Source: Thiobacillus sp. (lineage in GTDB: Bacteria; Pseudomonadota; Gammaproteobacteria; Burkholderiales; Thiobacillaceae). From it: DNA of 64,000 nt. Of the stretch, positions 16,913 through 63,053 are shown in pieces (position 1 is the first letter of the stretch; the number at the start of each line of letters is the position of its first letter). The position numbers were made by a program, and so were the translations under genes. The DNA lies in the NCBI GenBank assembly GCA_046292745.1, contig JBKBQH010000009.1, positions 10,360 through 74,359 of the forward strand, given 5' to 3'. Below the pieces are notes generated by a model, which saw nothing but the letters and a program-made list of their open reading frames with translations, ran no database searches and was not told the DNA's origin.

Positions 16913-16922
16913 GGGATTTTGC

Positions 16923-22696: not shown

Positions 22697-25600
22697 CGAT
22701 CGAAGAAATAAGTGTATTGAATCCCGGCCTCCAACGCCTGGCCCGCGCTTGCCTGCCCGCCGCCGGTGCCTCCCAGGTAGGCGCTCAGATGATCGCCCCC
22801 GAGCACGCTGCCGGCAGCGCCCGCCAGCCAGTTCCAGGTCAGGCCGGTGACGGAATTGCTGCCCACGCCCAGGTCCAGGTAGGGCCGCCAGGCGCGGCTG
22901 TATTCGCGGCGGACGTTTTCACCAATACCGAAGTTTATCCCGTAAGCGGCAAAACTTTGCGGCAAAAAGGCGCTGGCGGGCACATTCACGGCGGACAGGG
23001 CGGCCCCGGCCTGGGGGATCCCCAGGCCGGGGTCGAGGCGGGCGAGCGCATTCCATCTCGCGGCGGACAGTGGCAGCGCCGACACGGGCAGGCGCCCCCC
23101 CGTGTCGGAAAAGCGCCATTGGCTGGCATTGAAGCGCAGCATGAAGTTCGGGTATTCGGTGCGGATGCGCCAGCCCGCCTCGGCCATCACGCCCGTGCCG
23201 TCGCCCACCGCCGCCCCGCCTTCCAGCCCGTAGCGGTCGTATTGCAGCGTGGCCGCGAGATATTCGCGACGCGAAACATTCCATTGCAGACGCGCCTGCA
23301 CGCTGTCCTTCTCGCCCAGCAGCCGGAGCTGGGCGGACTCGGTGGCGGGCTGGTTCAAACCCAGTCTCAGCTGGGCGTCCAGCCGCTGGAAACGCACGGC
23401 ATGCATGAAACCCGCCACCGGCTGGCAGTCGAAACGGCAGCGCGCGCCGAGCCTGAGCGCGGTTTCGCCGCGATCGTGGCGGTATGCCAGTTCCAGCTGC
23501 GTGTCGGTATAGGCCTGCGACAAGCCGGCGAGCTGGAGTTGATCGTAGGTGGCGTTCAGGCCGTAGGCTGCGTTGAGGCCATCGACCAGGGGGTTCCGCA
23601 GGAGCACGGCGTTGGCGTCGACGACGCGGTCACGGCCGCGATCCAGCGTCAGGCCGAGTCGCCAGCGCGCCTCCCCCTGCCAGGCGAAACCGAGCCGCAA
23701 GGCGCCGGTTTCGATATTGCCGTCGTCGCGGATCGTGCCGCCCGCCGTGTAGGCCTGCGCCAGGGGCAGCGCAGTCTCGCCCAGGTGCAGGTGCAGCGTG
23801 TCGTCCCAGTCATAGCGCTCGAGACCGTCGAAGGCCAGGGTTTGCGCCAGCCGCACCCGGCCGCTGCCGCGCGCGGCATGAATGTGGTCATACAGCGGGA
23901 TCGCGCGATCTTCGTCCAGCAAACGTGCCTGCGCGTCGGTGTCGCCGGTTTGCAGGGCAAGCAGGCTGGCCGCCCAGTCCGGCGCGGCGACCCGCTGCGC
24001 ATGGCGGGCCAGCAGCCAGGCGGCGGCGCGGTCGCTTGCCTCCTGCGACAGGAAATAGCCCAGCGCGAGTTCGTCGGCATTGCGGCTGTCGCGCGCCGCC
24101 ACCGCGCGCAGTTCGGGCGCCAGCCCCTCGTTGCCGGCCTGGCGCAAGGCATGGCGCAGCACGCTTTCCGCGCGGTCACCCGGCTGGTAAAGCAGGGCCA
24201 GGCGCACGACGGCGGTGCGCACCGCCCTGTCCGCCAGCGCGGGGGCCGCCTGCTGGCGCTGCCGCCACAGCGCCCAGCGCAGGCGCTGCGCCAGCACCTG
24301 GCGGTGCGCCAGATCCAACAGGTCGGCATAATTCATCAGCCAGAGGAAATCCTCGCGGTGCGCGGGCAGCTGGCTCTGCGCCCACGCCAGCGCCGTTTCG
24401 GGCTGCCCCAGCTGCGCATACGCGGCGCTGAACGCGTCGGCCAGCCGGCCGTCACGCCGGGCGTCCGCCTGCCAGCGCGCGAGGCGTCGTGTCAGCGCGG
24501 GACGGTCTTGCTGCTGGATGAGCAGCCACAGCAGCGCGACCTTGAGGTCGTCGTCATCGGGGACGAGCGCGAGCGCGTTCTCCCAGGCTTCGCGAGCCTG
24601 GCGCACCTCACCCGCGTGCTCCGCCCAGGCCGCCTTGAGGCGCCAGAACGCGTCTTGCCCGCGCAGGGTGTCGAACAGCGGCCCGCGCGCCTCCTCCAGC
24701 AGGCGCCCGGCCTGGCGCCAGTCCTGCGCCTGCGCGTATAGGCTCAGGGCCTGCAGGTAGAGCGCCGCGTCCTCGCTTTGGCGCCAGCCCGCTTCCGCCA
24801 GCTGTGCGGCTTCCAGGGGATGGCGCGCCGCCAGCAGCGCGACCAGATTCTGCGTGTCCTCCAGGCGCGGCCCGCCGCCGGCATGCAGCACGCGATAGGC
24901 TGCCACGGCCTCGTCGTTGCGCGCCAGGAGACGCGCCAGCTCGGCGCGCAGCCGCCAGTATTCCAGCGCTGCCGGGCTCGCTTCGGGGAACCCGGTCAAG
25001 GCCGCGTAAGCGGCTTCGAGCCGGCCGGCGGCAACATGCAGCACCGCTTCCCTGACCGCCAGGTCCGCGCTGTCACGCCCCTGGCGGCGCAGCGCCTGCA
25101 GTGCGCTCAACGCCCGCTCGGTATCGCCCAGGCGCTGCGCCAGCCAGGCGATGATGCGCAGCAGTTCCGGGTCGCGCCGCTGCGCCAGCAGCTGCTCCAG
25201 ATACGCCAGCCCGGCGCGGGCGTCGCCAAGATACTCGTAGCTCTCGGCGATGCGCTGCCACAGGGCGGGGTTGCCGCGCCCGCTCGCGGCTTCGTGCCGA
25301 TAGGCCTGGAGCAGCGCGTCATAATCGAACAGGCCGGGCGCGAGGCGCAGCACGCCCTGCCAGGCTTGCTCGGCGTTCGTCTTGCGCGCCAGCCACAGCC
25401 AGGCATCGAGCGCCTCCCGGGGACGCTGCGTCCATTCCGAGATTTGCGCCAGACGCTCGCGCCACAGCAGGCTGTCGGGCCGCTGCTTCACGGCGGACGC
25501 CGCCACCCGCCAGGCGTCCTTGAGGTTGCGGTTGGCCAGAAAGGCTTGCCAGGCGAGCGCGTAGGCTTCCTCGTCGAAGGTGCGCGGCAGCAGGGCCGGG

Positions 25601-26538
25601 GCCACCTGCAGGCGCTCGGCGCCGCCACTTTGCGCCACGGGCCGGAGCTGCGGCACGGCCGCCTGCCTGAGTTTCTCCAGCCAGCTGAACTGGAGCAGGC
25701 GGCGGGAAAAGCGGTCGGCAGCGGCCGGGTCGTTGGCCGCCAGCGCCAGGCGGATCATGAACACCAGATAATCGCGCTCCTGCATGAATTCGCCGCCGCG
25801 CCGTTCACCCGCAGCCACGGCCTCCTTCAGCAAGCCGCCCGCCTGCAGGATGCGCAGCCCCTGCAGCAGGAAACGAAGCCGCTCGTCCGCGCGCCGGGCG
25901 TTGTCCTGGGCAAGAAAATACAGTTCGGCGGCCAGCCGGTACTGGCCGCGTCCCAACAGGGTTTCGCCCTTGCTGGCGAGCACGCGGCTGTCCATGCCCG
26001 CGTCGGTGCGGGCAAGCCGCCGGTAGAAGCGCAGGGCGAGGTCCGCGTCGTGCAGCGCCACGGCCATATCCCCCAGTTCGTCGAGCTGTTGCGGTGCGAG
26101 ACTGGCCGTGGCGAGCTGGTCCAGGGCATCGAGGATCGCCTGCCGGGCGGCCGGGTCGTCGCGGGGCAGCTGACGGACCCGGCCCAGCTGCAATTCCAGA
26201 CGGACGATCTCGTAGTCCGCCCCGCGGTCGCCGTCGCGCACCGTCCGTAGCCAGACTTCCGCCTCGTCCAGCTTGCCGTTGCGGATGAGCTGCCGGATCA
26301 GGGTCAGACGCAGCTCGGCGTTGCCCGGGTCGGTCTTGAGCAGGACGATGATGTAGCGCTCCGCCAGGGCCTGATTGATGTCGGCGTGGAGCAACTGTTC
26401 CGACAGGCGCTTGAAGGGAAAGGCCGCCACCAGTGCCAGCAGGACCGCAGCGCCGAACCCCAGCACCCAGGCCGGATGGAACAGCCGCTGGCGACCGCCG
26501 TCAAGGCGTGCAGACGACGTCAAACGCTGGTAGATCAT
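22693..26538 (-). CDS. pelB: Pel export scaffold/porin PelB (TPR repeats plus C-terminal beta-barrel)
   Basis: 1281 aa. An N-terminal TM helix, about 900 aa of TPR-like Ala/Leu/Arg-rich repeats, then a C-terminal region with alternating beta-strand pattern ending ...GIQYTYFFDR. Confidence 0.8.
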   Translation of the reverse strand: MIYQRLTSSARLDGGRQRLFHPAWVLGFGAAVLLALVAAFPFKRLSEQLLHADINQALAERYIIVLLKTDPGNAELRLTLIRQLIRNGKLDEAEVWLRTVRDGDRGADYEIVRLELQLGRVRQLPRDDPAARQAILDALDQLATASLAPQQLDELGDMAVALHDADLALRFYRRLARTDAGMDSRVLASKGETLLGRGQYRLAAELYFLAQDNARRADERLRFLLQGLRILQAGGLLKEAVAAGERRGGEFMQERDYLVFMIRLALAANDPAAADRFSRRLLQFSWLEKLRQAAVPQLRPVAQSGGAERLQVAPALLPRTFDEEAYALAWQAFLANRNLKDAWRVAASAVKQRPDSLLWRERLAQISEWTQRPREALDAWLWLARKTNAEQAWQGVLRLAPGLFDYDALLQAYRHEAASGRGNPALWQRIAESYEYLGDARAGLAYLEQLLAQRRDPELLRIIAWLAQRLGDTERALSALQALRRQGRDSADLAVREAVLHVAAGRLEAAYAALTGFPEASPAALEYWRLRAELARLLARNDEAVAAYRVLHAGGGPRLEDTQNLVALLAARHPLEAAQLAEAGWRQSEDAALYLQALSLYAQAQDWRQAGRLLEEARGPLFDTLRGQDAFWRLKAAWAEHAGEVRQAREAWENALALVPDDDDLKVALLWLLIQQQDRPALTRRLARWQADARRDGRLADAFSAAYAQLGQPETALAWAQSQLPAHREDFLWLMNYADLLDLAHRQVLAQRLRWALWRQRQQAAPALADRAVRTAVVRLALLYQPGDRAESVLRHALRQAGNEGLAPELRAVAARDSRNADELALGYFLSQEASDRAAAWLLARHAQRVAAPDWAASLLALQTGDTDAQARLLDEDRAIPLYDHIHAARGSGRVRLAQTLAFDGLERYDWDDTLHLHLGETALPLAQAYTAGGTIRDDGNIETGALRLGFAWQGEARWRLGLTLDRGRDRVVDANAVLLRNPLVDGLNAAYGLNATYDQLQLAGLSQAYTDTQLELAYRHDRGETALRLGARCRFDCQPVAGFMHAVRFQRLDAQLRLGLNQPATESAQLRLLGEKDSVQARLQWNVSRREYLAATLQYDRYGLEGGAAVGDGTGVMAEAGWRIRTEYPNFMLRFNASQWRFSDTGGRLPVSALPLSAARWNALARLDPGLGIPQAGAALSAVNVPASAFLPQSFAAYGINFGIGENVRREYSRAWRPYLDLGVGSNSVTGLTWNWLAGAAGSVLGGDHLSAYLGGTGGGQASAGQALEAGIQYTYFFDR

Positions 26539-29329
26539 GCGCGCGGATTTTGAAATGGCTGACGCCGGCCTGCTGGCGCACGGGTTTCAGCGTCTCCCCG
26601 TTGGCCTTGAATTGACACGGCTGCGCGTGACGAATCGCCCATTCCAGCGGCACGTGGCCGCGCAGGCCCAGCCGCAGCGTGCCGCCTTCCCGTTGCACCT
26701 GGGTGACGCGGCCGTTGGCCTCCCATAGCGTGGGGCTGTCGTCCGCCTGGCGGGCAAACACGATTTCCGCGCTGTCGCCCGCCAGGTGCAGATAGCGTCC
26801 GTCCGCGCCGGTTTTTTCGCCGGCGAGGTTTTTCGATGCGCGCCAGTCGATCGCGGGCGCATCGGCCGGCAGGCGCAGGGTGCGCAGCTGGGTGGCGCCA
26901 CGTACGAGGTAGCCGCGCCCGGTACGGGCGATCCCCAAGGTCACGAAATCCAGCACCGAGCGGATGTATTCCGAGCCGAAGACCGGATGCAGGGGCTGCG
27001 CCAGCGCCCAGTCGTACACCTTGCGCAAGGCCTTGAGCGAGGCGGGCTTGCTGGCGGAATAGGTGTGGTAGTAGATGTTGACAGGTTTCAGGCGGCGCGG
27101 CGAACCGGTCAGCTCGAAGGTCTCGATCACCCGTTCGTACCCGTAGAACGGCCCCTGCCAGAGGTTGGTATACACATTCTCGTTCTGCATCGGGGCGTAG
27201 ACCTGGATCGCCCCGCCCTTGTCGAGATACAGTCCCTCCACCGCGGCCAGGCTGGGATTGCTGCGGTCGATGACGGTATAGCCATGGTTCATGTTGAGCA
27301 GTCCCAGACGTTCCGTGTATCGCACCGTTTCCGCGCCCGGCGTGGTGTCGCCGCTCCACAGCAGGATTTCGGCGCGTTTGCCGGGCGGCAGCAGGTTTTC
27401 ATTGATGTAGCGGATGGAGCCCGCCACCTCCTTTTCCAGGTCGAAGCGATAGCCGGGAATGTCCAGATGGTAGCTTCCAGAGATTTCGCCGCGCTCGGCC
27501 TGGCGCCACTTGAAGGGATGCGAATAGGTGTGGCTGGCGGCCTCGATGTGCGGCAGCGCGTAGATGCGGCGGGCGATCGCCTCCAGCGCCGCGGATTGCC
27601 CGGGGTAGAGGCCGTCCGGCGCGATCTCCCCCTGGATCACCGACAGGGTGGTGGGAAGCGGGTAACGCTGGAAAATCTCCCGCAGCAGCACTTCGCTGGC
27701 GTACGGGCCGCCGGGAAATTCGGCGCGGCTGGGAAAGCCGTCGCCATCGATGTGCACCATCAACACCCGGCGGCCGGTCGCCGTCGTGACATCGGGTACC
27801 GGTGCCCCGTCCTGGCGCAGCGCGGCGGCGAAAAACCTGATGGGATCGATCACCCAGCGAAAACTCTGCTCGCGCCCGCCCGCCGCCGGCAGGGTGATCA
27901 ACACGCGCGGCAGCTCCGCATAGGCACCCCAGGGCGTGAGCGCGGCGACATCGTGAACCTGGTTGGCGTCGTTGCGGTAGCGCAGCCAGGTTTGGGCACC
28001 CTCGGCCTCGACCAGGCTGTCGCCGGGCAGCGTTCTCAGGGGAGGCATTTCAAACCCCGCGTTGGCGCCGTTCTCGGCCAGGCGCAGGGCGCCCGCGCCC
28101 TTGTCCGGCGCGCGTGTCCGCATCCCCCAGCCGGGCCGCCCGTTCAGCAGTTGCATGTCGGGCCCCAGAAACACCACGGGAACGCCGCACGCGCGCTGCC
28201 GGTCCAGCCAAGCCAGCCATTCTTTTCCGGGCTGGCCGTTGCCGGTCAGCCAGACCACCACACCGGCGTAGGCGGCGATCTGCTCGGCCGACGGGGTATC
28301 GCGGATGTCCTGGTATTCCGTGGCGTAGCCCAGGTAATGCAGGGGCATGGCGCCAAAGCGCACCGCACTGCTCAAGGCCACATCCGCCCGCAGTCCCTCG
28401 TCGTGCAGGAGCAACACGCGGCGGCGCACCGGCTCGATGCGGCCCAGGCCCACCTGCGTCAGGTCGCCACGGGTCACATAGGGCTCGATGCCCAGCGCCA
28501 GGATCTTGCGTGCAATCTCCCGCGCCTGCGCGGGTTTCTCCGGCGGCGCGTAGTCGATGGCATACACCGCGAGGCCCAGTTCGTCGCGCACCCTGACCAT
28601 CTGTGCCAGCAGCCAGGCACGATCGGCTTCCGCCACCTCGACATAGCGTTGCCGGGCCTGGTCCCAGCCACCAAACAGGGACTCCGCCGCCACCGCGAAC
28701 ACCTCGTTTCTCACCTGCGGCAGGATTTCGAATCCGCGGTTGAGAATCAGCCTGGCTTCGGGATACCGCGCGCTGACGGCCTTGATGAGACTGACCAGCG
28801 CGGCTTCCTGGCGCGCGCGCGCCTCTGGCGTGCCGGCCGCCAATTGATAGGAATCCATGGTGTCGAAGAAGAAACCGCGATACCCCCGCTGCCACAGCGG
28901 CGCGATCACCTCGTCGAGAAAGAATTGCCGCCAGGCCGGCTGGGTCTGATCCAGCACCTTCGACCCCCAGACCTTGTTTTCCGCGATCAGCCAGGCGGGC
29001 GGAATGCGTGCACTGTAATCCCGGCCCGGGTGCACCTCCCCCACGCTGACATAGGCAAACACCTGGGCGGGTTCGAGTTTCGCCGGTTCCAGCGAACTGG
29101 CGGGGTCGAGCACCACGATGTCGAACGACTTCAATTCGGCGACGGGCGGCCGCGCGCCGTAATACAGGGCGAGCGTGGGTGCGGCCCAGGCGGGCGCGAT
29201 GAAAAGCCCGATCGCCAGCATGAGGAATGCGGCTGCCGACGCCGGCTTCAAAAAAACCCGCCCGCCCAAGCCGGGTTGGCTCCTGGAAACCGGCAAGGGG
29301 GAAGGGATGGGCTGCGCTTTCGGGGACAT
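26501..29329 (-). CDS. pelA: Pel hydrolase/deacetylase PelA (start uncertain; TTG at 29251 is an alternative)
   Basis: 942 aa. Signal peptide ...LMLAIGLFIAPAWA-AP, an N-terminal glycoside-hydrolase-like TIM region and a central CE4-like region (VLMVHIDGDGFPS, ASHTYSHPF). First gene of the operon, with size close to P. aeruginosa PelA. Confidence 0.85.
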   Translation of the reverse strand: MSPKAQPIPSPLPVSRSQPGLGGRVFLKPASAAAFLMLAIGLFIAPAWAAPTLALYYGARPPVAELKSFDIVVLDPASSLEPAKLEPAQVFAYVSVGEVHPGRDYSARIPPAWLIAENKVWGSKVLDQTQPAWRQFFLDEVIAPLWQRGYRGFFFDTMDSYQLAAGTPEARARQEAALVSLIKAVSARYPEARLILNRGFEILPQVRNEVFAVAAESLFGGWDQARQRYVEVAEADRAWLLAQMVRVRDELGLAVYAIDYAPPEKPAQAREIARKILALGIEPYVTRGDLTQVGLGRIEPVRRRVLLLHDEGLRADVALSSAVRFGAMPLHYLGYATEYQDIRDTPSAEQIAAYAGVVVWLTGNGQPGKEWLAWLDRQRACGVPVVFLGPDMQLLNGRPGWGMRTRAPDKGAGALRLAENGANAGFEMPPLRTLPGDSLVEAEGAQTWLRYRNDANQVHDVAALTPWGAYAELPRVLITLPAAGGREQSFRWVIDPIRFFAAALRQDGAPVPDVTTATGRRVLMVHIDGDGFPSRAEFPGGPYASEVLLREIFQRYPLPTTLSVIQGEIAPDGLYPGQSAALEAIARRIYALPHIEAASHTYSHPFKWRQAERGEISGSYHLDIPGYRFDLEKEVAGSIRYINENLLPPGKRAEILLWSGDTTPGAETVRYTERLGLLNMNHGYTVIDRSNPSLAAVEGLYLDKGGAIQVYAPMQNENVYTNLWQGPFYGYERVIETFELTGSPRRLKPVNIYYHTYSASKPASLKALRKVYDWALAQPLHPVFGSEYIRSVLDFVTLGIARTGRGYLVRGATQLRTLRLPADAPAIDWRASKNLAGEKTGADGRYLHLAGDSAEIVFARQADDSPTLWEANGRVTQVQREGGTLRLGLRGHVPLEWAIRHAQPCQFKANGETLKPVRQQAGVSHFKIRAHDLPAFDVVCTP

Positions 29330-29370
29330 GACTATCGGCTACAATCCGCGCTCTGTTTCAAGGAAACCGT

Positions 29371-53804: not shown

Positions 53805-55199
53805 CTAGGCCTGCGGGGGACGCGGGTTGTGCCAGCGCCCGCCTGCGAGCAACAGGTCGGCCTCGGCCGGCCCCCAGGTGCCGGGCTCGTAGGCGCAGAC
53901 CGGGTCGCTGTGCACCAGCACCGGTTCGACCACGCGCCACGCCGCCTCGACCGCGTCCTGGCGGGCGAACAGCATGGCCTCGCCATCCATCGCGTCGCCC
54001 AGCAGGCGCTCGTAGGCGCTCATCTCGTCCGGGTGGTCGTTGCACACGTAGAGTTCGACCGGCCGTCCGACCATGCGGTCGCCGGCGTTCTTGGTGCGCG
54101 CGCCGAGCGCGATCGACACCGTCGGCGACAGCCGCATGCGCAGGTAGTTGGGCGCCAGCGGCCCCGATTCTGACAGCGCGAACACGCGCTGCGGCGGCAG
54201 CTGGAATTCGGCGCGGATCTCGGTGGTGGTGATCGGCAGGCGCTTGCCGGTGCGCACGATGAAGGGCACGCCGGCCCAGCGCCAGGTGTCGATGTAGAAA
54301 CGCACCGCGGCGAAGGTTTCGGTGTCCGAGCCGCGCGCCACGCCTGCCTCCTGCCGGTAGCCCTCGTACTGCCCGCGCACCACGTCGCCCGGCGCCAGCG
54401 GCCGGATCGCCTTCAGGAGCTTGGCCTGCTCGTCGCGCACCGCCTCGGCGCTGGTGCCGAGCGGCGGCTCCATCGCCAGCAGCGCGAGAATTTGCAGCAG
54501 ATGATTCTGCAGCACGTCGCGGACCGCGCCGACCGAATCGTAGAAGCGCCCGCGACCGGCGACACCGAAACTTTCCGACATGGTGATCTGCACCTGGCGG
54601 ATGTGATTGCGGTTCCAGATCGGCTCGAGGAAGGAGTTGGCGAAGCGGAAGTACAGGATGTTCTGCACCGCCTCCTTGCCGAGATAATGGTCGATGCGGA
54701 AGATGCCCGATTCCGGCAGCGCCTCGTGCAGCGTGGCGTTGAGCGACTTCGCCGATTCGAGGTCGCGGCCGAAGGGTTTTTCGACCACCACCCGCGCCCC
54801 TTCGGTGCAGCCGGCCGCGGCGAGCCCGCGCACCACCACCGGGAACATCGACGGCGGGATGGCGAGGTAGTGCAGCGGATGCTTGCGGTGCTCGAGCGCG
54901 CGGCGCAACGCAACGAAGGTTTCCGGATCAGCGTAGTCGCCGTTGATGTAGGTGAGCAGGCTGGCGAGGTTGCGGAACACGCCGTCGTCGGCGCCGCCGC
55001 CGAATTCGTCGATGCCGGCACGGGCGTGCGCGCGCAGGCGGTCCAGGTCCCAGCCATCCGTGTGCGCCACGCAGACGATGGGCGGCAGCGTGCGGCCGTG
55101 ACGCAGCATGTCGTGCAGCGCGGGGAAGATCTTGCGCCGCGCCAGGTCGCCGGTGGCGCCGAACAGCACCAGCGCATCCGACTGGAAATTTCCGCTCAT
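53805..55199 (-). CDS. zwf: Glucose-6-phosphate dehydrogenase
   Basis: 464 aa. [12 protein letters not shown] dinucleotide motif and RIDHYLGKE active-site motif. Confidence 0.92.
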
Positions 55200-55231: not shown

Positions 55232-55975
55232 CTATCGCAAGCCGTCCAGCCAACCGCCGAGCTGGCCGATGCCGAGCGCCATGGCCTGGGCGACGCGCGG
55301 CACCGCCCAGATCCAGGCCATCATCAGTCCCAGGGCGGCTAGGCCGAGGCCGACCGAAAACATGTCAAGCCCCGGCGTGGTGCGCGCAACGATACCGAAG
55401 GCGAGTTGCACCAGCAACGCCAGCGCAAGCAAGGGCAGCGCCAGTTGCAGCCCGGTGGCGAACAGCCAGCCGCCGGCTTCGGCCAACTGGCGCAGGTCCG
55501 GCGCAGCGGGCAGCAACGCCACCGGTATCGCCGCGAAGCTGTCGCGCAGCGCGTCGACCACCAGCAGATGCCCGCTCGCGCCGAGGAAGGCGAGCGCCGC
55601 CAGCCAGCCGGCCAGCGCGCGCCAGGCGGCGTCGGCGGGCGCTGCCTGCTCGGGCGTCAGGTTCAGGAGGCCGCCGGTCGCGGTGTGGCCGGTCCACACG
55701 AAGGCCAGCGTCACCGCCGCGAACACCAGCCACACGGCGAGCGCCAGCGCCGCACCCCACACCGCCTCGAGCGCCAGTGCCAGCACGCCCTGCAGGCTGA
55801 ACGCCGACAGCGTGACGGCCGCCAGTCCCGGCGCCAGCGCCGCGGCCAGCACCGCGGCCAGCATCAGGCGCAATGACCACGGCAGGCGGCCCGTCAGCGG
55901 GTCGAGCAGCGTCCAGCCGGCGAGCCGGGCGAACGCGAACAGCCAGGCGGAGAATGCGGCTTCACTCAGCGGCAC
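55232..55975 (-). CDS. fliR: Flagellar-type export apparatus protein FliR (SctT family)
   Basis: 247 aa multi-TM protein. Follows fliQ, and the FliR-like pattern ...LALPLLALALLVQLAFGIVARTTPGLDMFSVG... is present. Confidence 0.8.
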   Translation of the reverse strand: MPLSEAAFSAWLFAFARLAGWTLLDPLTGRLPWSLRLMLAAVLAAALAPGLAAVTLSAFSLQGVLALALEAVWGAALALAVWLVFAAVTLAFVWTGHTATGGLLNLTPEQAAPADAAWRALAGWLAALAFLGASGHLLVVDALRDSFAAIPVALLPAAPDLRQLAEAGGWLFATGLQLALPLLALALLVQLAFGIVARTTPGLDMFSVGLGLAALGLMMAWIWAVPRVAQAMALGIGQLGGWLDGLR

Positions 55976-55982
55976 GGGCAGT

Positions 55983-56237
55983 TCACTCCAGCAGCGCCGG
56001 GAAATCGGTCAGCAGGGTGCGCGCGAACCCGGTCAGCTGGCCGCCCATCCAGCCGCCCAGCGCGGCCAGCACGAGCAGCATCACGATGAGCTTGGGCACG
56101 AAGGACAGCGTCGGCTCGAGGATCTGCGTCGTCGCCTGGAACAGGCTGACCGCGATGGCGACCGCGAGCCCCGCCAGCAGTACCGGGCCCGCCACCACCA
56201 CCAGCAGCCAGAACGCGTCGCGGGCGAGGGCTTCCAT
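55983..56237 (-). CDS. fliQ: Flagellar-type export apparatus protein FliQ (SctS family)
   Basis: ORF trimmed to ATG 56237 (MEALARDAFWLLVVVAGPVLLAGLAVAIAVSLFQATTQILEPTLSFVPKL...), giving 84 aa. ATGA overlap with the fliP stop. Confidence 0.8.
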   Translation of the reverse strand: MEALARDAFWLLVVVAGPVLLAGLAVAIAVSLFQATTQILEPTLSFVPKLIVMLLVLAALGGWMGGQLTGFARTLLTDFPALLE

Positions 56238-56965
56238 CAGAAGGATCCGATCAGCGAGCCGACCAGCAGGTGCCAGCCGTCGACGGTGACGAACAGCAGC
56301 AGCTTCAGCGGCAGCGATACCAGCTGCGGCGGCAGCATGATGACGCCGAGCGCGGTCAGCACCGCCGCGACCACCAGGTCGATCAGCAGGAAGGGCAGGA
56401 TGACCATGAAGCCGATCTGGAACGCGGTCTTGAGTTCGCTGGTGAGGAAGGCCGGCGCCAGCACGGCGAGCGGCACGCTGTCGACCCGGGCCGGATCGAT
56501 GGTCTTGTCGTCGCCGATGAACAGATCGAGATCTTCGGCACGCGTCTGCCGCAGCATGAAGGCCTTGAGCGGCTCCGCCGCCCGCTCGGCGGCGGTGTTG
56601 AAGTCGAGCGTGCCTGCAAGAAACGGCTGGTAGGCCTCGGCGTTGAGGGTCTTGATCGCCGGCGACATGACGAAGACCGTCAACAGCACCGCCAGCCCCG
56701 TCAGCACCAGGTTGGGCGGCGCGGTCGAGCTGCCCAGCCCCTGCCGCAGCAGGAACAGCACGACCGCGATGCGGGTAAAGGCGGTGAACGCCAGCAGCAG
56801 CGCCGGCAGGAAGGGAAACAGCAGCAGCCACGGCAGGCTCGCGCCCGGCACGCCGATCACCTGTCCGCCCGCGCCCGGCGTCACCGCCAGCAGCGGCACC
56901 GTCGCCTCGGCGCCAAGTGCCGGCAGGCTTGCCGCCAGCGCCGCCATCCCCAGCGCCACCCTCAT
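56237..56965 (-). CDS. fliP: Flagellar-type export apparatus protein FliP (SctR family)
   Basis: ORF trimmed to ATG 56965, giving 242 aa. Conserved FTRIAVVLFLLRQGLG, APAFLTSELKTAFQIGF and PFLLIDLVVA regions. ATGA overlap with the fliO stop. Confidence 0.88.
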   Translation of the reverse strand: MRVALGMAALAASLPALGAEATVPLLAVTPGAGGQVIGVPGASLPWLLLFPFLPALLLAFTAFTRIAVVLFLLRQGLGSSTAPPNLVLTGLAVLLTVFVMSPAIKTLNAEAYQPFLAGTLDFNTAAERAAEPLKAFMLRQTRAEDLDLFIGDDKTIDPARVDSVPLAVLAPAFLTSELKTAFQIGFMVILPFLLIDLVVAAVLTALGVIMLPPQLVSLPLKLLLFVTVDGWHLLVGSLIGSF

Positions 56966-57303
56966 CGCGCGGACTCCGTCGCGCCTGGGGCACGCGCCGG
57001 TTTCGGCAGCGTGTGCAGCAGGCGCACGTTGCCGCCGCCCACGCCGAGCAGCAGCCAAGTGTCGTCGACCTCGACGATCACGACGCGCTCGCGCGCGCCG
57101 ACCGCAGCCGAACCGACCACTTTCACGTTCCCCTGTCCCCCCAGGCCGGGCAGGTAGCGGCGCACGAACCAGGCCACGGCGACAAAGCCGCCGAGTATGA
57201 GGGCCAGGCTCGACAGCACGGTGAACACGCTGCCCGTCGCGTCAGTTGCCGCGTGCGCGGGCAGTGCCGCCAGCAGCAGCGTTGTCGCCATCCCTCTACG
57301 CAT
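56962..57303 (-). CDS. fliO: FliO-like small single-pass protein
   Basis: 113 aa. One TM helix (VFTVLSSLALILGGFVAVAWFVRRY), then ...VVGSAAVGARERVVIVEVDDTWLLLGV.., which is FliO-like. It lies directly upstream of fliP. Confidence 0.6.
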   Translation of the reverse strand: MRRGMATTLLLAALPAHAATDATGSVFTVLSSLALILGGFVAVAWFVRRYLPGLGGQGNVKVVGSAAVGARERVVIVEVDDTWLLLGVGGGNVRLLHTLPKPARAPGATESAR

Positions 57304-57748
57304 GCCGTATCACGCCTCGCGCCCAGCGTGTCATGTCGCTCGTGACGGGTGGCAACTGCACCGACAGCGCCACGCCGCCGAGGCCGCTCGCGATCCGCCA
57401 CGCAAGCGCGGCCGGCAAACCGGCGGGCGCATCCAACCAGCACTCCGCCAGGACGCCGTCAAGCGTGCGGATCAGGCTCGGCGGCACGAAAGGCGCCACA
57501 CCGGCGGGACGCTGGCCGCCCAGCCGGCGCGTGAGCCACAAGCTTGCGAGCGCCGCGTCGGGCTGCCACAGCGGCACGGCAGGCCGCGCCGTGGGCGATC
57601 CCGTGGAAAGTGCATGCAGCGTCACCGGCATCCGCAGGCGTGCGCTCAGCACCGCGGCAAGCCGTCGCGTCAGCCTGTCCTGCAGACAGACGGCAGGCGG
57701 CGTGGACAGGAAGGTGTCTTCTTCGGGCGTGAGATCGAGCAATTGCAT
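57296..57748 (-). CDS. Hypothetical 150-aa protein occupying the fliK-fliN slot; weak FliM-middle-domain-like motifs, no SpoA domain
   Basis: Intact ORF packed tightly between fliJ (4-nt gap) and fliO (8-nt overlap). QDRLTRRLAAVLSARLRMPVTLHAL and LWLTRRLGGQ resemble by eye the E. coli FliM ERFARHFRMGLFNLLRRSPDITV and AVDNLFGGDG segments. Confidence 0.5.
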   Translation of the reverse strand: MQLLDLTPEEDTFLSTPPAVCLQDRLTRRLAAVLSARLRMPVTLHALSTGSPTARPAVPLWQPDAALASLWLTRRLGGQRPAGVAPFVPPSLIRTLDGVLAECWLDAPAGLPAALAWRIASGLGGVALSVQLPPVTSDMTRWARGVIRHA

Positions 57749-57752
57749 CGTG

Positions 57753-58205
57753 TCAGTACCCCAGCCGGTTCACTTCGGTGCGGTGCATCAGCTCGACCAG
57801 TTCGTCGTGTTCGCGCTGCTCGATGCGACGCTGCTGGATCGCGGCTTGCGCCTGGTAGCGCTGGTGCAGCAGGCGCAGCGCCTTCACCCGTTGTTCGACC
57901 TGCATCCATTCGGTGAGCCGCGCCTGCCAGGCTGCATGCGCGGCGTCGATGTCGGCCTGCGCCGCGCGCATCTCTTCGGCCTGTGCCCGCTGCAGGCGGT
58001 TCATTTCCTGCAGCTGCGCCGCCGTCACGCCAGCGCGTCGTTGTGCCGCCCACTGCGCGATGCGTGCATCGCGCAGCGTCGTCAACTGCACCATGCGGCC
58101 CCGTGCGCGCAGCCACACCCCGTGCGCGAATTTGACCGAGCGCGACAGCGTCTCGCTGCGCCGTTCCGCCAGCTGCAGCACCCGCGCCAGGGCAAAAGGC
58201 TTCAC
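57753..58205 (-). CDS. fliJ: FliJ-like export chaperone/stalk protein
   Basis: GTG 58205 forms a GTGA overlap with the fliI stop and gives 150 aa of coiled-coil-type sequence ((V)[22 protein letters not shown]...[14 protein letters not shown]). Position after fliI fits. Confidence 0.6.
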
Positions 58206-59599
58206 GCCAACACCTCGGCGAGCGCGGCGCGCGCCGCTTCGAGGGAGACGCGTTCGCGCATGCCCTGCATCAGATACCCCTGCATGCGCGGATACAGGCG
58301 CACGCCCTCGTCGAGCACGACGTCGGCGCCGGGTACGTAGGCACCGACGGCCAAGAGATCGCGGCTGCGCATGTAGCGCGAATACAGATACTTGAAGCGG
58401 CGCGTGCGGTCGAGCTCGTCCTCGGGCAGCAAATCCGGCTGCACCCGGCTGATCGACGCCTCGATGTCGATCGCGGGGTAGTGGCCGGCGTCGGCGAGGT
58501 CGCGCGAGAGCACGATATGGCCGTCGAGAATCGCGCGCGCGGCGTCGGCAATCGGATCCTGCACGTCGTCGCCTTCCATCAGCACGGTGAAAAAAGCGGT
58601 GATCGAGCCGCTGCCGCTGCGGCCGTTGCCGGCGCGCTCGGCCAGCTGCGGCAGCTTGGCAAACACCGACGGCGGATAGCCCTTGGTCGCCGGCGGTTCG
58701 CCGATCGCCAGCGCCACCTCGCGCTGCGCCATGGCGTAGCGGGTGAGCGAATCCATGATGAGCAGCACGTGCTTGCCCTGGTCGCGAAAATGCTCGGCGA
58801 TCGACATCGCGTAGGCCGCGCCGTTCAGCCGCATCAGCGGCGGATGGTCGGCCGGCGCGGCCACCACGACGGCGCGCGCCATGCCCTCGGCGCCGAGGAT
58901 GCGGTCGATGAACTCCTTCACCTCGCGGCCGCGCTCGCCGATCAGGCCGACCACCACCACGTCGGCGGTGGTGAAGCGCGCCATCATGCCGAGCAGCACG
59001 CTTTTTCCGACGCCGCTGCCGGCAAACAGGCCCAGCCGCTGGCCGCGCCCCACGGTCAACAGGCCATTGATCGCGCGCACGCCGACGTCGAGCGTTTCGC
59101 GGATCGGGGCGCGCTCGAGCGGATTCATCGGCCGGCTGTAGAGCGGCACCCGGCGCTCCAGCGCCAGCGGGCCCATGCCGTCGAGCGGCCGGCCGGCGCC
59201 GTCGAGCACGCGGCCGAGCAGGCGGTCGCCGACCGGCACCTGGCGCACGCGGTCCTGCGCGCGGCGGCGCGGGATATAGCGCATGCCCAGGCGCGGCGGC
59301 TGGGCGGCGAGCGGGTTCTCCGGGATCACGCGCGCCCCCGGCATGACGCCGTGCACGTCGGTCGCCGGCATGATGAAGAGCGTGTCGGCAGCGAATCCGG
59401 CGACCTCGGCCTCGATGCTCTGCCCGCCCGGCACGTGTACGGTGCACTGGCTGCCCACCGGCAGGCGCAGGCCGACGGTTTCCATCACCAGGCCGGACAC
59501 CCGGGTGAGACGCCCGCTCGCCGCGACCGGCGTCGCCCAGCTCACCGCGCGCCGGCAGTTGGCAAGGTATTCGCGCAGGCGGACGATGCGATCGCTCAT
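58202..59599 (-). CDS. fliI: Flagellum-specific / type III secretion ATPase FliI (SctN family)
   Basis: 465 aa. Walker [21 protein letters not shown], and Walker [13 protein letters not shown]. Confidence 0.92.
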
Positions 59600-60189
59600 T
59601 CCAGCCAGCCCTGGTTGCTGCCGAGCACCTGCACCACCTGGCGCCAGCGTGCCGGCAGGGTGGCGTCGAGGTCGCCCTGCGGCGTCTCGATCAGGCAGCC
59701 GCCGCGCACGATGCGCACATCCTCGACGATGCGCAGGCGGTTCTTGTCGAGCACCTGGTCGAGATGCGGCCGCACCAGGGCGGCGTCGTCGGGATGGAGC
59801 AGCAGACGCGCCTCGCGCGTGCTCTCGGCCATTTGCTTCAGGGCCAGGTTGACCACGTCGAGGATGCGCTCGGGCCGCGCCGACAGCTCGCCGGCGACGA
59901 CCTGACGCGCCACGTCGAGTGCAAGCGCGAGCAGCATGTCGGAGAGCCGGAAATCCAGGTTGTCGAGGGTGTTGCCAAAGCTTTCCGCGAGCTGCTTCAT
60001 GCGCCCGCAGGCCTGCTCGGCCTCCTGGCGGCCGGCGGCGAGTCCCGCCGCGTAGCCCTCGGCGCGCGCCTGTTCACGCAACAGCGCGCGCTCGGCCGCC
60101 GCTGCCTCTTCGGGAGCCGGTTCGCTCGACGCGGCGAGTTCGACCACTTCCCACTGCTCGAACGCGGTCGGCTCATCGGGCGTGCTCAT
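59596..60189 (-). CDS. fliH: FliH-like ATPase regulator/stator (SctL family)
   Basis: 197 aa. Central Ala/Glu-rich coiled region, then a C-terminal ...[11 protein letters not shown]....[26 protein letters not shown], a typical FliH/SctL ending. 4-nt overlaps on both sides. Confidence 0.65.
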
Positions 60190-61154
60190 GCCGCCACCTC
60201 CTCTTCCGGAAATCCGATCGCGCCTTCCGCGGCCAGCCGCCGCAGCGTGCCGGCCGCCTCGTCCTGCGCCGCCTGGATCTCGGTCACCGGCAGCGCGCCC
60301 AGCGTGTCGAGATCATCGCGCATGCGCCGGGCGGCAGTCGGACTCATCACCGCGGTAAGCGCGTCGAGCACCGCGGCATCGCTGCCCTTGAGCGCGTGCA
60401 GCAGCGTGCGCGCGCCGACATGGCGCAGGAAGGTGCGGCGGTCCGCCTCGGGCAGCCGCGCCAGGTCCTCGAAGGCGAGCGCGCGGGCGCGCAGCCGCGC
60501 CGCGAGGTCGGCGTCGTTCTGGTCGAGCTGGTGCAGCGTCGCGGCGACGCTGCCCTCGCTCATCTGGCCCAGCAGATGGGCGGCCACGGCCTCGCCCTGC
60601 GCCGACGCGGCGGAATCGAGGCTCGCCACCCAGTCGTCGAGATCGCGCAGCATGTCGGCGCTCGGCACCTCGCTATGCGCCAGGTCGCGCAGGGTATCGG
60701 CACGGGTGCGCGCGGGCAGCACCTCGAGCACGCCGGCGGCAACGTCGCGCGGCAATTGCGAGATCACCACGGCAATGAGTTGGGGCGGCTGCGACTCCAG
60801 CAGACCGGCGATCTCCGCCGGCGGCCGCCAGGCGAGCTTGTCCAGCATGCGCGGCCCCGTCGCGCCGAGCCGCGCCAGCAGCGCCTGCGCACGTTCCGGG
60901 CTCAACGCGCGCTTGATCGCCTCGTCGAGGAAGCGCCCGGTATCGGCGGCAAAGCCCGTCTGCTCGGCGGCCTCGGCCACGTAGTCGCGCAGGATCGCAC
61001 GCACGCGCTCGCGCGGCAGCACTTCGATTTCGCGCATCGCACTGCCGAGGCGGGCGACGTCAAGCGGGCTCAGATAACGAAACACCGCCGCCGTCGCCTC
61101 CTCGCCCAGGGCGAGCAGCAGCGCGGCGGATTTCTCGACCCCGGCCTGGCTCAT
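60186..61154 (-). CDS. fliG: Flagellar motor switch/rotor protein FliG
   Basis: ORF trimmed to ATG 61154 (MSQAGVEKSAALLLALGEEATAAVFRYL...), giving 322 aa. The C-terminus aligns by eye with E. coli FliG (ALAFEDL.. versus MFVFENL; LLHALKGSD versus LLIALKGAE; RRMRDDL versus DILRDDL). Confidence 0.85.
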   Translation of the reverse strand: MSQAGVEKSAALLLALGEEATAAVFRYLSPLDVARLGSAMREIEVLPRERVRAILRDYVAEAAEQTGFAADTGRFLDEAIKRALSPERAQALLARLGATGPRMLDKLAWRPPAEIAGLLESQPPQLIAVVISQLPRDVAAGVLEVLPARTRADTLRDLAHSEVPSADMLRDLDDWVASLDSAASAQGEAVAAHLLGQMSEGSVAATLHQLDQNDADLAARLRARALAFEDLARLPEADRRTFLRHVGARTLLHALKGSDAAVLDALTAVMSPTAARRMRDDLDTLGALPVTEIQAAQDEAAGTLRRLAAEGAIGFPEEEVAA

Positions 61155-62539
61155 GCGCGCATCCACAATTTGACGACGTCGGCGGCGACGCGCGGATCGG
61201 CGAGCACCTGATTGCGCACGCCGTCGAGCACGACGTCGAAATCGTCGACCGGAACCCCGCTCGCCGGCACGCGCCGCGCGCGCCGCAGCGCAAGGAAAAA
61301 CAACGCCACCAGAACGGCCACGGCCAGCACAGCCAGCACAACCGGCGACGGCTGCCACGCCGATTCGGCCACGGCGGGTACGTCGGGCCGCACCTCGGGA
61401 ATGCGCGTCGGCGGCACGGCCACGGGCGCATCGGCCGGCGGCGCGGCCGTGGCGGCCGGCGCGGGCAAGGCGTAGACGCTGACGCGATCGCCGCGCGCCG
61501 GCACCAGGCCCAGCGCCTGGCTCGCCATCTGCCCGGCCCGACGGATCTCGGCGGCGCTGGCGTCGAAGCCGAGCACCACGACCGCCTGGATGCGCTGCAC
61601 GCTGCCTTGCGGCACGCGCGTCGTGCGCACCGTCCTTTCGAGCGGGGGCGTCCCACCGCCGACGGTGGCGCCGCGCATTCGCTCGACGGTCTGCCGGGTT
61701 TCGCTGTCCTGCAGCGTCGCGGTCACCTGCACGTGGACGCGCCCTTCGCCCGCCCAGGGCGTGAGAACGGCCAGCGCGCGCCGCGCCAGATCGTGTTCCA
61801 GCGCCAGCCGCTGCGACTGCGCCGGCGCGGGCGCGGCATCGCCGAGCAGCACGCCGCGCGGGTCGAGCACCTGCACCTCGCTGCGCTGCATGCGCGGCAC
61901 GCTGGCAGCGACCAGGGTCTGGATCGTCGCCACCTGTCCGGCGCTCAGCGTCGCGCCAGGACGCAGGCGCACCAGCACGGCGGCGGTGGCCGGCGGCGCG
62001 TCACGCAGGAAGGGCGAGACCTTGGGCAGGGCGAGATGCACGCGGGCGAGCTCGACCGGCTCCAGTTGCTGGATCGAGCGCGCGAGTTCCTTCTCGAGCG
62101 CGCGCTGGAAACGCTGCTGTTCCTGCAGCGAGGAGGCGCCGAAGCTCGGCGCGCGGTCGCGTTCGTCCTGCATGTCGGCGTCGGTGCGCGGCAGGCCGCG
62201 CGCGGCGAGCCGGTAGCGCGCGATGTGCAATTGCGCGGCCGGCACCTCGATGCTGCCGTCGGCGGCGGACAGCCGGTAGGGAATGTCGAGCTGCTCGAGC
62301 GCGGCGATGACTTCGCCGCTGGCACGGTCGGACAGCTGCGCGTAGAGCACGCGATATTGCGGGGGATTGAGCCAGACGTAGGCGGCGCCCAGCGCCAACA
62401 GCGGCAGCACGACCAGCAGGGTAAGCATGAGGCGGCGCAAGGGGCTCGCCTCGACGAATGCATCGCGCAGACTGCTCAGCCAGCCCGGCACGGCACGCAC
62501 CTCGTCGGCTGGAGGGGGGACGCCACGATCGTCCCGCAC
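61151..62539 (-). CDS. fliF: Flagellar MS-ring protein FliF (SctJ superfamily), short form
   Basis: 462 aa with GTG start. N-terminal TM helix, LYAQLSDRASGEVIAALEQLDIPYRL, ring-building motifs, a second TM helix, and a C-terminal FliG-binding-like ...ADPRVAADVVKLWMRA. Confidence 0.8.
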   Translation of the reverse strand: MRDDRGVPPPADEVRAVPGWLSSLRDAFVEASPLRRLMLTLLVVLPLLALGAAYVWLNPPQYRVLYAQLSDRASGEVIAALEQLDIPYRLSAADGSIEVPAAQLHIARYRLAARGLPRTDADMQDERDRAPSFGASSLQEQQRFQRALEKELARSIQQLEPVELARVHLALPKVSPFLRDAPPATAAVLVRLRPGATLSAGQVATIQTLVAASVPRMQRSEVQVLDPRGVLLGDAAPAPAQSQRLALEHDLARRALAVLTPWAGEGRVHVQVTATLQDSETRQTVERMRGATVGGGTPPLERTVRTTRVPQGSVQRIQAVVVLGFDASAAEIRRAGQMASQALGLVPARGDRVSVYALPAPAATAAPPADAPVAVPPTRIPEVRPDVPAVAESAWQPSPVVLAVLAVAVLVALFFLALRRARRVPASGVPVDDFDVVLDGVRNQVLADPRVAADVVKLWMRA

Positions 62540-62566
62540 GGAAAGGCGGATTTAGTCACGCATCGA

Positions 62567-63019
62567 TTATAACCAGTCAGGCCCCACCACAGCGCGCAAT
62601 ACGACCTGCAGTTCGCCGTCCCGTTCGCGGCACTGGAACCACCAGATTGCGCCTTTCTTGATCGACAGGTCGCCCGCCTGACCCGAGAGCAGCCGGGCCG
62701 CCACCTGGCCCAGCGTCGGCTGGTGGCCGACGACGAGCACCGGATGCGCCGCATGGGGCCAGCCGGCGGCCTCGAGCACCGCGTCGGCGCTGGCCCCCGG
62801 CGCGAGTGCCGGCACCTCGGTGTAACCGCGCCCGAGCGCGCGGGCGGTCTGCAAGGCGCGTCGCGCCGGGCTGACCAGCACCTGCGTGTCCTGCGCCAGG
62901 CGCGGGTTCAGCCAGTCGGCCATGCGGCCGGCCTGCTTGCGCCCCTTGTCGGTCAGTTCGCGCTCGAGATCCGGCTGGCCGTCCTCGGCCTCGGCGTGTC
63001 GCCATAAAATCAGGTCCAT
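62567..63019 (-). CDS. sixA: Phosphohistidine phosphatase SixA
   Basis: ORF trimmed to ATG 63019 (MDLILWRHAEAEDGQPDLERELTDKGRKQA...VLVVGHQPTLG), giving 150 aa. Confidence 0.8.
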   Translation of the reverse strand: MDLILWRHAEAEDGQPDLERELTDKGRKQAGRMADWLNPRLAQDTQVLVSPARRALQTARALGRGYTEVPALAPGASADAVLEAAGWPHAAHPVLVVGHQPTLGQVAARLLSGQAGDLSIKKGAIWWFQCRERDGELQVVLRAVVGPDWL

Positions 63020-63053
63020 CTTCAGTCTCCTTCCGGGTGATAGTACGGATGCG

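Follow-up and report, generated by a model that had tools for sequence, protein, structure and literature searches.

Which machine can be built from a flagellar-type gene set that encodes an inner-membrane ring, a rotor protein, an ATPase complex and the FliPQR part of an export gate, with FlhA, FlhB, rod, hook, filament and stators all missing from its surroundings? The question is raised by ten genes, fliF-G-H-I-J-orf150-O-P-Q-R, found in a 64,000-nucleotide (nt) stretch of contig JBKBQH010000009.1 from Thiobacillus sp.; this whole stretch is referred to below as the window. Our analyses favor, at a probability of roughly 55%, a functional, vertically inherited and reduced paralogue of the flagellar core, which would form a non-rotary complex in the cell envelope and would most plausibly act as a platform for type III-style export or assembly.

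All ten genes are intact and lie co-directionally on the minus strand (Table 1), as had been proposed in a preliminary description of the window. Nine of the ten proteins were named by Pfam and NCBIfam profiles, the exception being orf150. The junctions had been described as mostly 4-nt ATGA/GTGA overlaps, which is true for five of the nine (F/G, G/H, H/I, I/J and O/P), but the other four differ: orf150 and fliO overlap by 8 nt, fliP and fliQ by 1 nt, and short gaps separate fliJ from orf150 and fliQ from fliR. For comparison with relatives, one genome per species of the GTDB was scanned, which gave 160 relatives, and the best 80 of these were used at the level of the locus. The start of fliF was placed at a GTG codon (62491) preceded by GAGG, the same start being found in 80 aligned relatives. 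With this start FliF has 446 amino acids (aa); it is indeed short, but the 462 aa given earlier correspond to the maximal open reading frame (ORF). The gap between sixA and fliF becomes 75 nt instead of 27 nt. The bounds of fliG, fliP and fliQ were likewise amended, and the start of zwf was confirmed to lie 32 nt past fliR.

Searches for additional flagellar genes covered both the window and related loci. When 44 flagellar, chemotaxis and stator proteins of E. coli were compared by tblastn with the whole 64 kb, matches were obtained only for FliF, FliG, FliH, FliI, FliO, FliP, FliQ and FliR, and Pfam scans of about 40 further window ORFs returned only housekeeping genes and a pel operon. No rod, hook, filament or stator genes are present in the window. 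FlhA and FlhB were found neither in the window nor in the 10-kb flanks of 85 loci, and the 10 kb around 81 related loci contained no FlhA, FlhB, FliM, FliN, Flg, Mot, FliC or FliA. The claim that the 64 kb hold no other flagellar or SpoA-domain gene was therefore upheld by Pfam and tblastn, although orf150 is predicted to be a piece of the cytoplasmic ring (C ring). The loci compared do not amount to a complete secondary flagellar system; they hold ten genes only, bounded by sixA on one side and by dapA or zwf on the other. Of the injectisome genes, SctC, SctD, the SctJ lipoprotein, SctQ, SctV and SctU were all absent from the window.

FliF proteins with a full beta-collar have approximately 540–580 aa, compared with 446 aa in the window protein (mini-FliF), in which the collar is a short hairpin. 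The TIGR00206 profile matches mini-FliF at positions 13–286 of 555 only, with 154 bits. Residues 33–271 align with Salmonella FliF 38–281, that is, with the ring-building motifs RBM1 and RBM2 and the start of RBM3, and residues 283–345 align with Salmonella 367–438, the end of RBM3. The Salmonella segment of approximately 282–366, comprising most of the beta-collar, has no counterpart. An AlphaFold2 model shows a first transmembrane segment (TM1), RBM1, RBM2, RBM3 with two long strands and an 11-residue loop between them, a second transmembrane segment (TM2) and C-terminal helices; the C-terminal FliG-binding helix is present in mini-FliF. Full-length short FliFs made up only about six clusters in an exhaustive search through 1.8 billion representatives, and the rest were proteins of 520–620 aa matched in the N-terminal half only. 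Shortening goes further in the lineage of locus L192, whose FliF (335 aa, L192:429–1436) lacks RBM3 and whose other nine genes are intact. In the FliF variants of 335–395 aa (L192; P0249, P0250, P0252, P0253), TM1, RBM1, RBM2, TM2 and the FliG-binding tail are kept and RBM3 is gone. As the collar is lost, and in L192 also RBM3, such a ring would hold no rod.

The window FliG is 27% identical to E. coli FliG and reaches 136 bits with TIGR00207, under the cut-off of 226.7. FliGs of this type (mini-FliGs) are 26–32% identical to any canonical FliG, compared with 51–75% among the canonical ones themselves. The EHPQR motif and the residues K264, R281, D/E288, D289 and R/K297 were invariant in 20/20 sampled canonical FliGs; the window protein has R281T, R297P and QPPQ..D in place of EHPQR. 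R281 is changed to T, A or S in 72/72 Thiobacillus mini-FliGs and is also absent from the more distant loci L085, L191 and L192, the last two of which lack R297 as well. Among the Thiobacillus proteins, R297 is replaced by P in 68 of the 72, E125 by Q and H126 by P or A, and R160 is gone. Lloyd and Blair, in 1997, are said to have identified R281, D288 and D289 as the principal residues of FliG in contact with the stator. Since R281 is lost, mini-FliG would generate no torque.

The product of orf150, previously regarded as a single unknown in the fliK–N slot, could not be assigned to a family at the sequence level by Pfam, NCBIfam or hhalign against E. coli FliM, nor by scanning 33 homologues against Pfam at E ≤10. 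An AlphaFold2 model made from 33 homologues (predicted local distance difference test score, pLDDT, 83) was compared with the PDB by Foldseek. Ranks 1–15 were all FliM middle domains (probability 0.99–1.0, best E 7.5e-5, template modeling (TM) score 0.5–0.58), followed by CheC/CheX. Within the FliM/CheC-CheX-FliY fold family, the predicted alpha/beta/alpha fold fits crystal structures of the FliM middle domain best. The gene sits in the slot of canonical fliK-L-M-N, and its homologue in the same slot of L085 was recovered by hhalign with E 6e-5, an R-(L/F)-G-G motif being common to both. This motif, invariant as R-L-G-G in the orf150 family and R-F-G-G-G in L085, recalls the FliG-binding GGXG loop of FliM by resemblance only. 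On the basis of the model, orf150 is predicted to be solely a FliM-middle-domain-like (CheC-like) fold, and it is named FliM' here. FliM has approximately 330 aa versus 150 aa for FliM', which shows no detectable sequence similarity to it and carries neither a CheY-binding N-terminus nor a SpoA C-terminus.

The canonical combination of the FliPQR gate with FliO and the FliH/I/J ATPase complex is complete in the cluster. FliI scores 641 bits with TIGR03496 (cut-off 619), has intact Walker A and B motifs and is 62% identical to E. coli FliI. FliP (TIGR01103, 232 bits, cut-off 217) is 53% identical to its E. coli counterpart, and FliO reaches 73 bits with TIGR03500 (cut-off 55). FliJ remains just below its cut-off (TIGR02473, 48.2 vs. 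50.45), FliQ below (TIGR01402, 84 vs. 88.9), and FliR likewise (TIGR01400, 92 vs. 168.6). Taken by equivalog cut-offs, FliI, FliP, FliO and FliF pass, and FliG, FliH, FliJ, FliQ and FliR do not. FliH keeps the N-terminal motif (S/T)AF(E/D)QWE, the canonical form of which is LTAYQRWEL. For each component the flagellar models gave a higher score than the Sct models of injectisomes (FliP 232 vs. SctR 163; FliI_clade1 641 vs. SctN 483). These scores, together with the presence of both FliG and FliO, bear out the flagellar rather than injectisome ancestry that had been proposed from the latter two proteins. The methionine 'gasket' of FliP (56237–56965) reads GVIMLPP here, GMIM(L/V)PP in relatives and GMMMVPP in E. 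coli, and, going by this motif, a change in the sealing of the gate is possible.

Essentially all of the best 80 of 160 relatives belong to Thiobacillus or Thiobacillaceae. Named carriers are T. denitrificans DSM 12475, T. denitrificans RG, T. thioparus DSM 505 (L053) and strain SCN1, and two complete genomes, T. sedimenti CP141769.1 and OW818664.1, also have the cluster. Hundreds of homologues were obtained for FliF, orf150 and FliI, the named ones being nearly all from Thiobacillus or 'Hydrogenophilales' metagenome-assembled genomes (MAGs). In all sufficiently long loci of 81 the order CHAD-sixA-fliF-G-H-I-J-orf150-O-P-Q-R-(zwf)-dapA-bamC is the same. The arrangement sixA-fliF…fliR-zwf of the window is conserved on the sixA side, where sixA adjoins fliF in 82/82 loci, but less so on the other, since zwf lies between fliR and dapA in only 23 of the approximately 55 loci reaching that far and fliR is followed directly by dapA in the approximately 32 others. 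The same ten genes were found in distant lineages: in L085 and L086 (80% identity to the window in FliI, 40% in FliG and 38% in FliF), again between sixA and dapA-bamC and with a stand-alone receiver gene upstream; in L191 (FliI 86%, FliF 48%); and in L192 (FliI 84%), where Wadjet (JetC/JetD) genes take the place of dapA after the cluster. In L087 and L127, sixA is followed by mini-fliF. Because the same genes recur at the same locus in Thiobacillus and in these distant lineages, the cluster is, as judged from gene content and order, an old and vertically inherited trait of this part of Thiobacillaceae.

The cluster is under purifying selection and is not decaying. Over approximately 60–80 species nearly all copies are full-length, the exceptions being found at contig ends and in a few long-read MAGs. 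Ratios of nonsynonymous to synonymous substitution rates (dN/dS), calculated as medians of pairwise Nei-Gojobori (NG86) values, were 0.08 for FliI, 0.15 for FliP, 0.16 for FliG, 0.18 for FliH, 0.21 for FliQ, 0.22 for FliJ, 0.23 for FliR, 0.24 for FliO, 0.31 for FliF and 0.40 for orf150. This range is comparable to that of the flanking genes, 0.07–0.34 (zwf 0.07, dapA 0.12, bamC 0.21, sixA 0.21, CHAD 0.34).

Two kinds of irregular record were also seen. In loci L065, L011 and L056, FliI or FliM' is split or the FliJ ORF is too long (310, 256 aa), which points to indels from assembly or to genuine fusions between fliJ and the gene downstream. In public MAGs the Thiobacillus-type cluster appears under the labels Hyphomicrobiaceae, Rhizobium sp., Steroidobacteraceae and Thermoplasmatota archaeon (L048, L049; P0088, P0202, P0478), probably through binning contamination.

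The genome scan returned mini-FliF loci only, its search patterns not matching canonical FliF, and a canonical set from the same family was obtained from a metagenome scan (L098, L123, L146, L116, L158, L154, L099, L093). The FliFs of this group are 61–100% identical to one another and at most 50% identical to the other canonical FliFs of the scan. By exact-sequence look-up, L098-type proteins belong to 90% clusters that carry the name 'Thiobacillaceae bacterium' or 'Hydrogenophilales bacterium', and one contig is labelled Thiobacillaceae_g_PFJX01. In this PFJX01 layout, che genes and flrBC-like regulators are followed by fliE, fliF (562–566 aa), fliG, fliH and fliI, and then by cco/fix genes. 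PFJX01 FliF reaches 394 bits with TIGR00206 (profile 15–495 of 555), compared with 154 for the window and 215 for L085, and PFJX01 FliG reaches 347 bits with TIGR00207, compared with 136 and 214. In neighbor-joining trees, built without injectisome outgroups, the mini sequences formed one clade in all seven proteins with 98.5–100% support. In the tree of FliI, the slowest of these proteins, its sister group is the canonical clade of Thiobacillaceae (93.5% bootstrap), and for the fast-evolving FliG, FliF, FliH and FliP the mini clade is a long branch outside all canonical sequences. Mini and canonical FliIs are 66% identical, either is 62–67% identical to those of other orders, and identity within each clade is at least 80%. 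Such distances would fit an old duplication better than a recent orthologous divergence. Among the matches listed, the homologues of FliI were orthologues at 90–99% identity.

T. thioparus DSM 505, which carries the cluster, is motile by one polar flagellum, and its genome holds 101 genes of COG category N. As this strain is flagellated, rod, hook, filament and stator genes must exist elsewhere in its genome. To our knowledge, a motor in which FliG lacks R281 and R297, FliF is nearly collarless and FliM has no SpoA domain is without precedent. Since the strain swims and a motor made from such parts would be unprecedented, we infer a separate canonical set in Thiobacillus.

A sixA-like gene is also present in PFJX01 and its relatives (L098:347–841, L123:352–846, L158:152–766), 53–58% identical to the window sixA. 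It lies approximately 9 kb upstream of the canonical fliE–fliI, with an AIM24-like gene before it and an EAL/HDOD gene and the che cluster after it. We considered an origin of the mini cluster in situ, out of a canonical operon beside sixA, and rejected it, as the PFJX01 gene is preceded by the AIM24-like gene and not by CHAD.

The retained parts could work together as follows. FliO would help FliP, FliQ and FliR to form the core of the export gate, which would sit within a ring of the shortened FliF (RBM1 and RBM2, plus a variable RBM3 and hardly any collar). The C-terminal helix of FliF would recruit the divergent FliG, and FliG in turn would bind FliM', the middle domain alone, as a layer on the cytoplasmic face, below which FliH, FliI and FliJ would form the usual ATPase complex. 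The retention of FliJ, of FliH/I and of the FliH docking motif suggests continued work with a gate of FlhA type, and perhaps also a SpoA protein, whose genes lie elsewhere. FlhA, FlhB and possibly the SpoA protein for FliH docking would then be either shared with the polar flagellum or supplied as dedicated copies. As genes for rod, hook, filament, stator, FlhA and FlhB are all missing from the module itself and the main torque residue of FliG is lost, we infer that it drives no filament.

Several points weigh against this reduced, non-rotary paralogue. We know of no type III gate without dedicated FlhA and FlhB, and no secretin, outer-membrane component or substrate was found nearby. The canonical set comes from another genus, PFJX01, and canonical fliF/fliG or flhA/flhB was not shown in the same genome as a mini cluster: none of the assemblies with canonical Thiobacillaceae proteins (JBFLXA, JAGPBN, DAIANU, DAHVTQ, JAJZTS, CAZOZD) equals a mini-locus assembly, and tetranucleotide similarity gave no assignment of the canonical metagenome contigs to Thiobacillus. 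The FliI tree would be equally compatible with orthology plus divergence. The FliM' call derives from one predicted fold (TM score ~0.55) and the gene position, with no support from the sequence. In Thiobacillus mini-FliGs, K264 and D289 are kept and D288 usually so, and L085 FliG, with R281T, keeps EHPQR and R297; some contacts to stators or to FliM may thus persist.

These kept residues would suit a different role, in which the mini proteins supply the ordinary polar flagellum with an alternative or auxiliary core and mix with or replace canonical parts under some conditions. They might form a second nucleus for basal bodies or a non-torque rotor resembling a brake or clutch, with FlhA/B, FliN, rod and stators being shared. 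K264, D288 and D289 of FliG, the flagellated host and the conserved FliH motif, which docks to FliN in canonical systems, agree with such a role, as does a module that has no FlhA/B of its own, yet encodes FliJ and FliH/I, which normally act on FlhA. The rod-holding collar of FliF is nearly gone, however, RBM3 is absent in L192, and FliG has lost R281, R297 and EHPQR. Moreover, mixed rings seem unlikely at the 26–40% identity of FliG and FliF to canonical proteins, and the lack of an obvious sigma-54 or sigma-28 flagellar promoter upstream is weak evidence in the same direction. We consider an auxiliary core, the main rival explanation, unlikely.

Still less probable is that these are the sole fliF–fliR genes of the cell and build a normal flagellum, with flhAB, fliE, fliK, fliL, a full fliM, fliN, flg and mot genes located elsewhere. 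Such a dispersed primary regulon, one of three options in the preliminary description, would have to operate without the FliG R281 that is invariant in 20 canonical proteins, without R297 and EHPQR, with a truncated FliF collar (and no RBM3 in one lineage) and with a middle-domain-only protein in the FliM slot. That neither the window nor the 10-kb surroundings of 85 loci showed a second copy, that NCBI annotates the proteins as FliF, FliI etc., and that FliI, FliP, FliO and FliF exceed equivalog cut-offs is what a single set would give, and orthology and paralogy are not separable by the FliI tree. Yet the five proteins below cut-off stand against PFJX01 FliF and FliG, which pass easily, the 66% between mini and canonical FliI is nearly the distance between orders rather than that within either clade, and canonical fliEFGHI genes exist in the same family.

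The decaying remnant of a second flagellar system, suggested by a reduced gene set, truncated domains and several sub-threshold profile scores, is refuted by ORFs intact across species, by dN/dS values like those of neighboring housekeeping genes and by an order and locus fixed across lineages down to 38–80% identity, and we give it almost no weight. The best fit to the gene and motif evidence is the third option, a reduced module of flagellar descent with a putative role outside motility.

An ATAAT core is at least 90% conserved across 80 aligned regions upstream of fliF (62492–62580 in the window), as part of an ATAAT-N6-GTGA element. In L002, L012, L024 and L030 the ATAAT is kept though the sequence 5′ of it differs, consisting of a replacement stretch of approximately 50 nt conserved among those loci, and it does not overlap the sixA stop codon there. 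A promoter scan upstream of fliF gave no full −35/−10 match for sigma-70, and neither sigma-54 spacing nor an obvious flagellar sigma-54 or sigma-28 promoter was seen. By its sequence, the TATAAT-like element is a possible −10 box and is offered as a lead only.

In many lineages a three-gene sensory module (OmpR-type response regulator, FecR/LysM protein and CHASE2 histidine kinase) lies between CHAD and sixA (L165:2166–6446, L191:3486–8740, L085:4451–9041; also approximately 24 Thiobacillus loci). The module of L191 has an extra GGDEF gene, and that of L085 has an extra stand-alone receiver gene, divergent from fliF. From its position this module could regulate the mini cluster. CheY-like matches near 24 loci were rejected as CheY, being generic OmpR-type regulators with 22–27% identity.

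Table 1. Coordinates of the ten-gene cluster and adjoining features in the window.
Feature	Coordinates	Strand	Basis or remark
fliF (mini-FliF, 446 aa)	61151–62491	minus	Pfam YscJ_FliF and partial YscJ_FliF_C
fliG (divergent FliG, 322 aa; N, M and C domains)	60186–61154	minus	Pfam FliG_N/M/C
fliH (197 aa)	59596–60189	minus	Pfam FliH
fliI (ATPase, 465 aa)	58202–59599	minus	TIGR03496 FliI_clade1
fliJ (150 aa)	57753–58205	minus	Pfam FliJ
orf150 (predicted FliM', 150 aa)	57296–57748	minus	Predicted fold and gene slot
fliO (113 aa)	56962–57303	minus	Pfam FliO, TIGR03500
fliP (242 aa)	56237–56965	minus	TIGR01103
fliQ (84 aa)	55983–56237	minus	Pfam Bac_export_3
fliR (247 aa)	55232–55975	minus	Pfam Bac_export_1
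sixA (phosphohistidine phosphatase; upstream neighbor, outside the machine)	62567–63022	minus	Pfam His_Phos_1
zwf (variable insert between fliR and dapA; flank)	53805–55199	minus	Pfam G6PD
TATAAT-like element (possible sigma-70-type −10 box)	62566–62571	minus	~75 nt 5′ of the fliF start; overlaps the sixA stop codon

The rest of the window holds nuoA-G, tpiA, an ABC transporter, glmM, ftsH, rlmE, a pelA-G operon, carB, fur, bamE, proB, cfa, msrB, a DEAD-box helicase, bamC, dapA and zwf, with a CYTH/CHAD protein gene and sixA upstream of the cluster. The pel operon (16900–29340, minus strand), approximately 26 kb away, looks complete and encodes PelG, a TPR protein (PelE-like), PelD, which has a GGDEF-like domain, PelB, which has a beta-barrel at its C-terminus, and a PelA-like protein of GH114 type; nothing was seen to connect it with the flagellar-type genes.

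No published description of such a cluster, or of Thiobacillus flagellar genes specifically, was found in the literature searched, which was incomplete. If the cluster encodes a separate machine, its variants would be a living series of intermediates for the stripping down and re-use of a flagellar core: full-length short FliF, a lineage without RBM3, and lineages with and without the EHPQR motif and R297 of FliG. That problem has so far been approached mainly by comparing flagellum and injectisome. Such a separate machine would also raise the question whether a FliPQR gate, an inner-membrane (MS) ring and an ATPase can function when FlhA/FlhB are borrowed or altogether lacking. As T. denitrificans is genetically tractable and Thiobacillus abounds in aquifers, sediments and wastewater, these ideas are testable. 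In addition, annotation pipelines that name these proteins plain FliF, FliG etc. inflate the completeness of 'flagellar assembly' in genomes of this kind.

Compared with the canonical core (fliEFGHIJ plus fliKLMNOPQR, as in PFJX01, E. coli and Salmonella), the F, G, H, I, J, O, P, Q and R genes share both homology and relative order, FliI belongs to clade 1, and the N-terminal motif of FliH, the Walker motifs and the FliG-binding helix of FliF are kept. Unlike that core, the mini cluster has no fliE, fliK, fliL or fliN and no flhAB, flg or mot genes nearby, and it is set among housekeeping genes. With Flag-2 or lateral flagella and Rhodobacter fla2 it would share a second flagellar core set per genome. 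Those systems, however, are complete, with flhAB, flg, fliMN, stators and flagellin, and give a working flagellum, whereas here there are ten genes and changes expected to inactivate the motor.

Flagellar export parts are retained without a filament in the basal bodies of Buchnera, in the flagellar system for type III secretion (FT3SS) of Lysobacter enzymogenes and in the orphan FliF, FliI and FlhA of Chlamydia. The Thiobacillus cluster resembles these in being a subset of the flagellar core maintained under selection, with a presumed non-motility role. In contrast, theirs are the remains of a sole system in non-flagellated hosts and include FlhA, usually with FlhB, whereas Thiobacillus is a flagellated genus, its set seems to be an extra copy, and FlhA and FlhB are precisely the missing parts.

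The injectisome, which according to Abby and Rocha in 2012 reportedly evolved from the flagellum through loss of motility parts, likewise combines a gate, an ATPase complex and an RBM inner-membrane ring without rod, hook, filament or stator. The mini cluster differs in keeping FliG and FliO and in having no genes for the SctC secretin, SctD, SctQ, SctV, SctU, needle, translocon or effectors. We tentatively suggest, at somewhat less than even odds, that an independent exaptation is still in progress in Thiobacillus, turning the flagellar core into an envelope machine with a role other than motility, as a second natural experiment beside the one that produced the injectisome. FliM would have been cut to a FliG-binding adaptor, FliG freed from torque, and the gate and ATPase kept for secretion or another membrane function. 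FliF would be shrinking to an RBM1-RBM2 ring like that of SctJ, which the FliF of L192 already resembles.

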